From a virus (Duplodnaviria > Heunggongvirae > Uroviricota > Caudoviricetes): a stretch of 64,000 bases of DNA. Position 1 is the first letter of the stretch; each line of letters starts with the position of its first letter. The stretch lies in IMG/VR virus record IMGVR_UViG_2718218100_000001, one strand, 5' to 3'. Below, one piece after another: positions 24,001 through 27,000 of this stretch. Made by a program: the position numbers.

Positions 24001-27000
24001 TTTGGAATCAAGTTTCCTCCTGAATTAATGGTTTTTCATAATACTAACTATTGATAAAAATATTTTGCATTTCATTAAAATAAAAAATCCCATGGAAAAT
24101 ATTTTTTGTTAGTTATTACATACAGCACATCAGGTCGTCAATATAGTCTAACTATAGTTATCACCAAAAACTTGCCTCGATTTTAGATTTTTCCAGTATT
24201 TGTAGATATTGCACTGAACACCGAATACGTAGCAGAGGGTGTCTACACGATAACGTTCTATGAGCTACCATGTTGTCGAAAAATTGTTTAGTGAGTATGA
24301 CATCAGGAATGTGGTGGTCTGTTTTAATATTTCTATTTCTATTTCTATTTCTATTTCTATTTCTATTTCTATTTCTATTTCTATTTCTATTTCTGTTTGT
24401 TGTGGTTTTTTCTTTAGTTCATGTATTTCGATTTGTTTCTGAATTATCGGGGGTAGTGTCTTCCCTTTTCCCTGAGGCTTATCATGCAGTTATTTTCGCC
24501 ATCTTGGTATTGTGGAAATACCGACATCCATAGCTTTGGTGAGCTCTGTTCAGGTGGCCAAATTCAGAAAACCATTACGGAGGAAGAAGGCGATGGCTAA
24601 ACCAGCGCGAAGACGATGTAACCGTAAAAGAGAAGATTTAACTGTTAAAAGGATATTTGAGTTACTAAGTTTCGATAAATCTACCGGGGTATTTAGATGG
24701 AAAGTTCCCACTCAGGGAAGGATAGCATTAAATAGTGTTGCTGGAGCTTTTGATTCCAACGGTTATTCAATGATCATGATAGATGGGCGTAGATATAAAA
24801 CTCACGTCTTAGTTTTTTACATAACTCATAATCGTTGGCCTGCTGGTCAAATTGACCACGTTAATGGAATTAGGACCGACAATAGGCCAGAAAATTTAAG
24901 AGAATGCCTGCCAATAGAAAATTCAAGAAATATAAGGATCCGAAAGAATAGCAAATCAGGTTGCAGAGGGGTTACTTGGCACAAACGACAGAAAAAATGG
25001 AATGTTAGGCTAGGATTCCATGGCAAGAGTAAACACTTCGGATGCTTTGATGATCTGGAGTTAGCGGTACTAGTTGCTGAAGAAGCCCGAGATAAGTATT
25101 ACGGTGATTTTTCCGGCAACGAAAGGAGCACTTATGCGAATCTATCGAAGGAAATGTAAATGTTGCAATGAATGGTTTATACCAAAATATCAAAATCAAT
25201 ATTGGTGTAATGAGATTTGTGGAACCAAGATAGCACTCGAACGACGAAGTAAAGAACGCGAAAAAGCGGAAAAGGCAGAAAAGGCAGCAGAGAAGAAACG
25301 ACGACGAGAGGAGCAGAAACAGAAAGATAAACTGAAGATTCGAAAACTCGCCTTAAAGCCCCGCAGTTACTGGATTAAACAAGCCCAACAAGCCGTAAAC
25401 GCCTTCATCAGAGAAAGAGACCGCGACTTACCATGTATCTCGTGCGGAACGCTCACGTCTGCTCAGTGGGATGCCGGACATTACCGGACAACTGCTGCGA
25501 CACCTCAACTCCGATTTGATGAACGCAATATTCACAAGCAATGCGTGGTGTGCAACCAGCACAAAAGCGGAAATCTCGTTCCGTATCGCGTCGAACTGAT
25601 TAACCGCATCGGGCAGGAAGCAGTAGACGAAATCGAATCGAACCATAACCGCCATCGCTGGACTGTCGAAGAATGCAGGGCGATCAAGGCGAAGTATCAG
25701 CAGAAACTTAAAGACCTGCGAAACAGCAGAAGTGAGGCCGCATGACGTTCACAGTAAAAACCATTCCTGACATGCTCGTTGAGGCATATGAAAATCAGAC
25801 CGAGGTAGCCAGAATACTGAACTGTAGTCGCAACACGGTCAGAAAATACACTGGCGATAAAGAAGGAAAAAGACACGCTATTGTCAACGGTGTTCTTATG
25901 GTTCATCGCGGATGGGGTAAAGATACTGATGCGTGATATCCGGCAGGTTCTTGAGTGCTGGGGGGCATGGGCGGCAAATAACCATGAGGATGTGACCTGG
26001 TCACCCATTGCCGCCGGATTTAAGGGACTGATCCCCGAAAAAGTAAAATCACGCCCGCAGTGCTGTGACGATGATGCGATGGTGATATGCGGGTGTATAG
26101 CCCGCCTTTACCGGAACAATCGCGATCTGCATGACTTGCTGGTTGATTATTACGTGCTGGGGGGGACGTTCATGGCGCTGGCACGGAAACATGGGTGCTC
26201 TGACACCTGTATAGGTAAACGCCTTCACAAAGCGGAGGGGATTGTTGAAGGCATGCTGATGATGCTGGGAGTGAGGCTTGAGATGGATCGGTATGTTGAG
26301 CGTGAATTGCCGGGAGGGAGAACCTCTGTATTTTATCAGCGAAAAAATAGTTTACGATCGTAAAAATCTGCATATCATGATAAGAGTGGTTACATTGCCA
26401 CGCTGCTTAACCCGCCGATGCGCGGGTTTTTTTGTACCCAGAATCCTGTGAGCTATACGGAAAGTACACAGAAAGGAAGGTGCGACCACAATTAATAACA
26501 AAATCTTAAAAATTGCACATGGCACTATTAGTTTTCTAAATATTGTGTATTTTTTGTATTGCAGGATGACCCTGTAACGAAGTTTGCGTAACAGCATTTT
26601 GCTCTACGAGTTTGCCAGCCTCCCCCAGTGGCTGGCTTTTTTATGTCCGTAACATCCTGTGTATCAATAAATGTTGTTGTCTACGTACGTCAAGTAGTCG
26701 CATGAGATCTGACCAGATATGTTAAGGTTGCAGCTCTCTTTGAATATAATTATCATTTTCATTACGTTATTGTTACGTTTATCCGGTGCGCCGTAAAACG
26801 CCGTCCTTCAGGGGGTGGAGGATGTCAAGAATATAGTTATCGTATGGTGCTCAAGGAGTATTGTGTAATATGAAAATAATTATTTTTAGAGTGCTAACTT
26901 TTTTCTTTGTTATCTTTTCAGTTAATGTGGTTGCGAAGGAATTTACCTTAGACTTCTCGACTGCAAAGACGTATGTAGATTCGCTGAATGTCATTCGCTC

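Follow-up and report, generated by a model that had tools for sequence, protein, structure and literature searches.

A hypervariable hexanucleotide array in the orfA pseudogene of an IS911-like remnant within an Stx1a-converting prophage

Introduction

Why does a lambdoid prophage carry a long and perfect hexanucleotide array, from what did this array arise, and does its length matter to the phage or to its host? These questions are raised by a stretch of 64,000 nucleotides from a virus of the Caudoviricetes (IMG/VR record IMGVR_UViG_2718218100_000001, hereafter the window), in which a first-pass annotation had pointed to ten perfect tandem TTCTAT hexamers at positions 24331-24390, between a gene for a 590-residue protein and an HNH endonuclease gene. 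The window is a prophage that converts its host to the production of Shiga toxin 1a (Stx1a). As described below, the array lies in the orfA pseudogene of a decayed insertion sequence (IS) and is a known, already exploited kind of hypervariable repeat, as it is the same sequence element as VNTR-9, a variable-number tandem repeat (VNTR) used in multi-locus VNTR analysis (MLVA). Very probably, it is a hypermutable, slippage-prone repeat that is neutral and has no evident function of its own.

Results

The ten hexamers were found by sequence inspection exactly where they had been reported. In the best register, they are part of a perfect array of eleven units that spans 24328-24393 and reads (TATTTC)11 on the plus strand and (GAAATA)11 on the minus strand, the TTCTAT series being the same array in another register. 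A degenerate twelfth unit, TGTTTG (24394-24399), closes the array, and this unit reads TATTTG in other haplotypes including prophage Sp17 of Escherichia coli O157:H7 strain Sakai. Tandem Repeats Finder (TRF) delimits the array to 24328-24398 with a period of 6, 11.8 copies, 98% matches and a score of 135. The array had been called unusual, and this is justified, as every other TRF array of the 64-kb window has at most 4.4 copies and as none of 100 dinucleotide-preserving shuffles held even three consecutive units of the pattern. The distances to the two neighboring genes, previously given as about 320 bp and about 200 bp, also agree with our measurements: the array starts 317 bp from the TTG start codon (24011) of the minus-strand 590-aa gene, and the ATG of the HNH gene (24593) lies 194-200 bp beyond the array end.

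The region between these genes had been termed intergenic, but a decayed IS3-family element that contains the array had been overlooked. An internally deleted IS911/ISEc52-like remnant of 427 bp on the minus strand (24153-24579; identified by blastn and tblastn, with the right limit at 24579/24580 set by comparison with an island-less prophage) fills the space, and in minus-strand order it consists of the left inverted repeat (IRL), the orfA pseudogene with the array, an N-terminal stub of orfB, and the right inverted repeat (IRR). In a sensitive blastn search, the segment 24376-24539 was 71-75% identical to IS3-family transposase genes (IS911, ISEc52) in thousands of records. The IRL remnant (24544-24579, minus strand) is identical to IS911 nucleotides 12-35 at 24 of 24 positions in its part 24544-24567, and its tip abuts the ribosome-binding site of the HNH gene, exactly where homology to the island-less phage resumes. 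The orfA pseudogene (24283-24555, minus strand) corresponds to residues 24-98 of IS911 OrfA (tblastn E=1e-16, 45% identity), and the sole gap in this alignment, 16 residues long, falls exactly at the array. It is followed by an orfB fragment of 32 codons that corresponds to residues 5-36 of IS911 OrfB (24187-24282, minus strand; tblastn E=5e-5) and by an IRR-like right end (24153-24199, minus strand), which is 78% identical over 45 nucleotides to the 3' end of IS911 (blastn).

The remnant thus shares with IS911 and ISEc52 the IRL interior, the helix-turn-helix and leucine zipper of OrfA, the OrfB N-terminus that follows orfA at the position of the frameshift site, and the IRR-like end. It differs from them by a protein identity of only about 45-60%, a GC content of about 31-38%, two deletions, an in-frame stop codon, a mutated slippery site, and the expanded (GAAATA)n, as no such expansion is present in intact IS911 or ISEc52. 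The larger deletion removed about 750 bp of orfB and joined the IRR to the orfB stub; it lies between two direct repeats of the 12-mer ATACTGGAAAAA, the two copies of which encode two RYWKN motifs of OrfB. The second deletion, of about 120 bp, lies between the IRL and orfA codon ~24. The start codon and the first ~23 codons of orfA are missing, an in-frame stop (RWRK*LHD) interrupts it, and A AAA CAG stands in place of the slippery A AAA AAG. The minus-strand translation reads ...TKAMDVGISTIPRWRK*LHDKPQGKGKTLPPIIQKQIEIHELKKKPQQT(EI)11LKQTTTFLMSYSLNNFSTTW*LIERYRVDTLCYVFGVQCNIYKYWKN..., with asterisks for stop codons, and no minus-strand open reading frame (ORF) of 40 or more codons crosses the array. 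The terminal inverted repeats are still recognizable, albeit with diverged tips. A functional element would need full orfA and orfB genes, the latter for a DDE transposase, linked by an A6G -1 frameshift site, of which the remnant has none, and judged by its sequence it is a dead IS.

The relatives of the remnant indicate how the array may have come into being. At the array site, ISEc52 reads ACT GAAATG GAAAAT GAAATA TTAAAAAAG, which encodes T-E-M-E-N-E-I-L-K-K, and IS911 is slightly different there, so that both elements share the proto-repeat GAAATG GA(A/G)AAT GAAATA. These three imperfect GAAATA copies immediately precede the A AAA AAG site and code for Glu-x pairs in the leucine zipper of OrfA. 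The window reads ACA (GAAATA)11 TTAAAACAG at the same site, i.e. the array specifies (Glu-Ile)n in the dead orfA, and relative to IS911 it constitutes an insertion of 48 nucleotides or 16 codons at the zipper motif EMENEI. Because three imperfect copies in the IS relatives stand against eleven perfect ones in the window, the array is to be regarded, on alignment, as an eight-unit expansion of a coding proto-repeat in a pseudogene copy. A tblastn search against plasmids revealed no closer intact parent IS above about 60% identity, and an exact scan of the GTDB species representatives did not find the junction of array and flank. Hairpin-driven instability was considered as a cause of the length changes and rejected, as the array folds as single-stranded DNA with a minimum free energy (MFE) of 0.

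The array is highly polymorphic. Its region is present in 523 of 5426 complete E. coli genomes, of which 245 have both flanks of the window type, while the remainder are mostly O157:H7 genomes with a left flank as in Sp17. Alleles were estimated from the span of 28 evenly spaced full-length matches and ranged from 5 to 15 units, with 7 and 8 units in five matches each, 9, 10 and 11 in four each, 13 in two, and 5, 6, 12 and 15 in one each. A search with 1 kb of the window added alleles of 16, 17, 18 and 23 units, the spans of two deposited Stx1 phages correspond to about 7 and about 17 units, and direct reading of sequences gave 5, 6, 9, 10, 11, 13, 15 and 23 pure units with constant flanks. 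Among the IMG/VR prophages, 33 complete loci comprised 12 alleles of 5-17 units (counted with the degenerate terminal unit) with a Simpson's D of 0.896, and one further, incomplete contig had only 4 pure units. The overall range in E. coli genomes and IMG/VR prophages is thus 4-23 units in whole-unit steps. The distribution is unimodal, matching a stepwise neutral model, and odd and even alleles are both common (13 versus 20 of the 33 loci). Five of six groups of sequences with exactly identical 700-bp flanks on both sides differed in copy number (e.g. 6, 6, 8, 10, 10 and 12), and it follows that the array mutates far faster than the 1.4 kb of flanking sequence gains a single substitution. A comparison across isolates had been suggested as a check, with an invariant copy number as one of the outcomes that would refute the idea, and invariance is not what we see.

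The first-pass annotation also remarked that such arrays serve as typing loci, and a sister copy of this array is indeed an established one. The TR1 repeat is given as AAATAG (PMC2246123, Table 2), and TR1 is the same locus as Vhec4 and VNTR-9 (PMC3321953, Table 1). AAATAG is a reverse-complement register of TATTTC, and the array unit therefore matches TR1. Two published forward primers have perfect sites on the minus strand of the window, namely TR1-F of the Noller set at 24471-24490 (PMC2246123, Table 2) and the PulseNet VNTR-9 forward primer at 24582-24608 (PMC3321953, Table A1), but the reverse primers TR1-R and VNTR-9-R have no site in the window at up to three mismatches, so the published assays would not amplify the window copy. 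In strain Sakai, the canonical locus is in prophage Sp17, and both reverse primer sites are within a partial IS30 to the left of the array. Sp17 and the window agree almost completely from a point 14-16 bp to the left of the array up to and including the start of the HNH gene, with 98.8% identity in the HNH-side flank of about 200 bp, and leftward of this region Sp17 continues with the IS30.

By location, the window copy belongs to the Stx1a prophage and not to Sp17 or its EDL933 counterpart at Z3935-Z3936, and some O157 genomes, such as strains 2571 and ERL05-1306, have both copies in two places. As the reverse primer sites and the Sp17 location are the two defining features that the window copy lacks, it is best classed as an intact paralogue of VNTR-9/O157-9/Vhec4/TR1 and not as that locus itself. 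The two copies agree in the repeat unit, the HNH-side flank, the forward primer sites, the 14-16 bp just left of the array, the allele range and a diversity of about 0.90 (published for VNTR-9: 6-23 repeats, diversity index 0.90; PMC3321953), and they differ in the prophage (Sp17 versus an Stx1a phage) and in the left side, which is a partial IS30 in the first and the intact rest of the IS remnant with the 590-aa gene in the second. In passage experiments with the Sp17 copy (Vhec4), about 1.3e-4 changes per generation were measured (PMC3777172).

The missing left half of the Sp17 module was found in strain SMN197SH3, in which the left flank, together with the 590-aa gene, extends to window position 24312 and there gives way to IS30. 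Since Sakai Sp17 and SMN197SH3 hold complementary halves, the published locus would be an IS30-truncated derivative of the same phage module. The partial IS30 copies (Sakai Sp17, locus L002, 3183-3986; SMN197SH3, locus L003, 3094-3927) correspond to an insertion point at about window 24312-24314, and in SMN197SH3 the half with the 590-aa gene, left flank and IS30 is joined to a tail-fibre region. The arrangement suggests that IS30 inserted beside the array and then mediated a rearrangement between prophages. VNTR-9 null alleles are frequent (31.7%; PMC3321953), and this rearrangement may contribute to them.

With regard to the wider setting, 1 kb of the window is 100% identical to the E. coli O157 isolates 644-PT8, 180-PT54 and F6321 and to strain 2014C-3061. 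The genes of the window run in the order O, P, ren, ..., ninB, a Dam-like methylase gene, ninE, the minus-strand 590-aa gene, the array, the HNH gene, ninG, ninH, Q, stx1A and stx1B, with the toxin genes 2.5 kb downstream. The HNH gene (24593-25159, plus strand; HNH_3 and AP2 domains) is the first gene of the phage backbone beyond the right end of the cargo island defined below. In the island-less prophage UMNF18, the order is ninE-ninX-ninF-HNH, and its homology to the window ends at 21726 and restarts at 24580, from which it follows that 21727-24579 is a cargo island of 2.85 kb in place of ninX-ninF. This island has a GC content of 27-39% and contains the 590-aa gene and the IS remnant, so that the location of the array in a cargo island, as earlier proposed, holds true by comparison with the island-less prophage. 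An E. albertii prophage is 93% identical across the entire island and keeps the IS remnant with 6 units. Because of this, the array must be older than the divergence of the E. coli and E. albertii prophages.

Promoters were sought in the region 23800-24800. A strict scan gave no sigma-70-like site, as compared to 4.2 expected in shuffles, and one weak terminator-like hairpin at 24449-24465 on the plus strand, and a relaxed scan gave nothing that straddles the array. The best candidate for the 590-aa gene in the relaxed scan is weak and rests on its match to the consensus: TTGACG, an 18-nt spacer and TG-n-AATAAC at 24141-24112 on the minus strand, which places it past the IS end and ahead of the start codon, at a distance of about 190 bp from the array. 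A search of 21000-27000 against Rfam (E<=1) returned only a spurious plant miRNA match far below threshold. As a separate observation, the IRR-like end together with TATATT (24145-24140) forms a weak hybrid promoter-like match by consensus (TTGGTG, 16-nt spacer; 24140-24167, minus strand) that points toward the 590-aa gene. Right ends of IS3-family elements are known to supply outward -35 boxes.

On the plus strand, the Prokaryotic Genome Annotation Pipeline (PGAP) annotates an ORF of 60 codons (24260-24442) as "hypothetical protein" that runs as (Ile-Ser)n through the array. PGAP calls this ORF only at array lengths of 11 or more units, each allele receives a new protein accession (e.g. WP_001430471.1, WP_001428177.1, WP_072148247.1, WP_419760794.1), and the reading frame into the array is not conserved in LSU61, Sakai and E. 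albertii, the LSU61 copy being flagged by PGAP as "frameshifted". No Pfam or PHROG match was found for the plus-strand ORFs across the array. The small plus-strand ORFs were rejected as genes because they belong to no family, their frame is not conserved, and their annotation depends on array length; the 60-aa ORF is most likely an annotation artefact.

Discussion

The above data are best explained by a repeat that expanded in a dead transposase gene and now varies without consequence. We infer the following course of events. An IS911-like element would have become the right end of the 2.85-kb island whose insertion separates ninE from the HNH gene in an Stx1a lambdoid prophage. In the dead copy, the proto-repeat would first have turned into pure GAAATA and then have expanded, and whole 6-bp units would since have been gained and lost by replication slippage, far faster than the flanks acquire substitutions. 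Slippage is the likely mechanism from what is established for short tandem repeats, and the published passage experiments with the Sp17 copy agree with it. Perfect arrays in place of short, imperfect motif runs that are kept in outgroups are reportedly known from eukaryotic genomics, where Messier et al. (1996) are said to have described the birth of microsatellites from cryptically simple proto-repeats. The case at hand differs in that the proto-repeat is coding, being part of a bacterial transposase leucine zipper, and in that the expansion is found in the pseudogenized copy only.

Three points weigh against this reading. All alleles observed keep at least four pure units plus the degenerate unit, which is above the three-unit ancestral state, and this floor could result from a mutational bias or from weak selection. 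Moreover, the array is kept in two different left-flank contexts with a constant HNH side, and for this reason an effect on the HNH gene or on the rightward early transcript may exist. Finally, among the intact IS relatives found, even the closest share only about 60% protein identity, and the ancestral site is thus reconstructed from outgroups and not from the true parent.

Could the length of the array nevertheless be put to use? It had been proposed that changes in copy number could alter promoter spacing. As alleles span 30-138 bp, they cannot fit into the 16-18 bp spacer between -35 and -10 elements, and no sigma-70-like site flanks or straddles the array, so that this classic role is geometrically impossible and the proposal is not supported. 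In a wider sense, the array might be a contingency or "rheostat" locus, in which its length tunes transcription of the 590-aa candidate effector gene or of the HNH gene, either via the distance from an upstream element to a promoter or their relative helical phase, or via local DNA architecture or H-NS binding in the AT-rich spacer. The position between two divergent genes in AT-rich DNA and the hypervariability would suit such a role, and repeat tracts distal to promoters modulate transcription elsewhere, as do the 7-bp repeats of Haemophilus influenzae hmw and the TAAA tract of Neisseria meningitidis nadA. Promoter-associated repeats of contingency loci also include the TA repeats of H. influenzae hif and the homopolymers of N. 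meningitidis porA and opc. Like these, the array is made of short tandem units, lies outside coding sequence close to where genes of a pathogen begin, and slips at a high rate, but unlike these it has no flanking promoter element and no gene start within 190 bp, and it resides in a transposase pseudogene. Contingency loci of the promoter-spacer type are recognized by a correlation of copy number with the expression of an adjacent gene and by a repeat between the -35 and -10 elements or in the 5' end of a real coding sequence, and the array is in neither position. The strict promoter scan was empty, and the best promoter candidate of the 590-aa gene is about 190 bp away, with the orfB stub and the IRR in between. 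In the Sp17 lineage, where IS30 stands in place of everything to the left, the 590-aa gene included, the array is just as variable, while the chromosomal homologue of the 590-aa gene in E. albertii has neither IS remnant nor array upstream. The absence of a parity bias and the unimodal alleles, as expected under the stepwise neutral model, also argue against a switch, and we therefore consider regulation by array length unlikely.

It is very unlikely that the array length acts as a heritable, fast-switching rheostat on a virulence-related output of the Stx1a prophage, be it via the 590-aa candidate effector or via read-through to Q and stx1. If it did, there would be a phenotype behind a polymorphism that, in the sister copy, serves for typing only. 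Less likely still is the specific version in which the length of (UAUUUC)n in the transcript tunes read-through from pR, the stability of the RNA, or collision with transcription of the antisense 590-aa gene, and thereby the timing of Q and Stx1. Gene order and orientation do put the array on the path from O, P and the nin genes to Q and stx1, and the weak terminator-like hairpin at 24449-24465 lies on the same path, but the array strand is unstructured (MFE 0) and without an Rfam match, and nothing ties an allele to a phenotype. N-antiterminated lambdoid transcription ignores most terminators, which further argues against this version. Hardly credible, and the least probable of all, is a coding role in which the array would give a small plus-strand protein (WP_001430471.1) an (Ile-Ser)n or (Leu-Phe)n stretch of variable length. 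The PGAP annotation of the 60-aa ORF, the frame-preserving unit of 6 bp and the listing of VNTR-9, i.e. the Sp17 copy, inside ORF Z3935/Z3936 (PMC3321953, Table 1) may be cited for it. However, annotation at 11 or more units only suggests a length-threshold artefact, the frame from start to array differs in E. albertii and LSU61, in Sakai IS30 takes the place of the N-terminus, neither a Shine-Dalgarno sequence ahead of 24260 nor a family match is present, and the ORF is antisense to a recognizable transposase pseudogene. A neutral repeat in a decayed orfA remains the reading that best accommodates these observations.

A neutral repeat of this origin is of practical interest for typing and annotation. 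Codon for codon, a bacterial VNTR in wide use goes back to the Glu-x repeats in the leucine zipper of a dead IS3-family transposase gene, which would make it a clear case of microsatellite birth after pseudogenization, and the derivation of the locus from such a gene accounts for the listing of VNTR-9 in "hypothetical ORFs". In the literature, we found no link between O157-9 and IS911, and the origin of the VNTR-9 array in an IS pseudogene may be a small new point. Strains with the array solely in the Stx1a-type context, which occurs in 245 of the 5426 complete genomes, including O111:H8, O39 and some O157 strains, have no reverse primer sites and are thus expected to be null in VNTR-9/TR1 assays. 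In silico MLVA on assemblies can mix up the two paralogues, as they have the array and one flank in common, and the ORF annotations across the array inflate the pan-proteome.

Additional observations

The 590-aa cargo gene (22239-24011, minus strand) has an AGGAGG-N4-TTG start and belongs to phrog_9230, a family of unknown function. No match to the protein was found in Pfam, NCBIfam, PADLOC or the PDB sequences, and homologues were found only in E. coli, E. albertii, Salmonella enterica and Providencia alcalifaciens. On the E. albertii chromosome (loci L015-L018), the homologue adjoins a gene for an NleF-family caspase-inhibitor effector and a weakly AvrPphF-like gene, and because of these neighbors the 590-aa protein is a candidate type III secretion system (T3SS) effector in the nin region of an Stx1a phage. 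An AlphaFold2 model from a 16-sequence alignment is of too low confidence for further use (mean predicted local distance difference test score, pLDDT, 38.8) and has a Ser/Thr-rich N-terminal region of about 120 residues without secondary structure, followed by an all-helical body. The chromosomal homologue shares only 22255-24035 with the window and has no IS remnant, which suggests that the IS may have joined the gene on its move into the phage.

Apart from the remnant, the plus-strand segment 9438-9840 is 99.75% identical to the IS1203 (IS3 family) copy of UMNF18 and matches the catalytic region of IS911 OrfB in tblastn; by this similarity it is a second, unrelated IS3-family element in the prophage. 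Just upstream of the P gene, four repeats of about 20 bp (ATCCCTCAAAACGAGGGAAA-like, period 20/39) are present at 18109-18186, and these appear to resemble the lambda-type origin iterons inside the O gene. A 45-bp unit occurs twice at 44928-45018, near several repeats of 9-10 bp (43818-45018); these repeats are rich in GGx/CCx codons and probably code for a collagen-like Gly-X-Y stretch in a tail-fibre protein. Another short array, second in the window by its degree of repetition, lies at 34347-34399 and consists of 4.4 copies of a 12-bp unit (AAATCGATCATG) with 82% matches.

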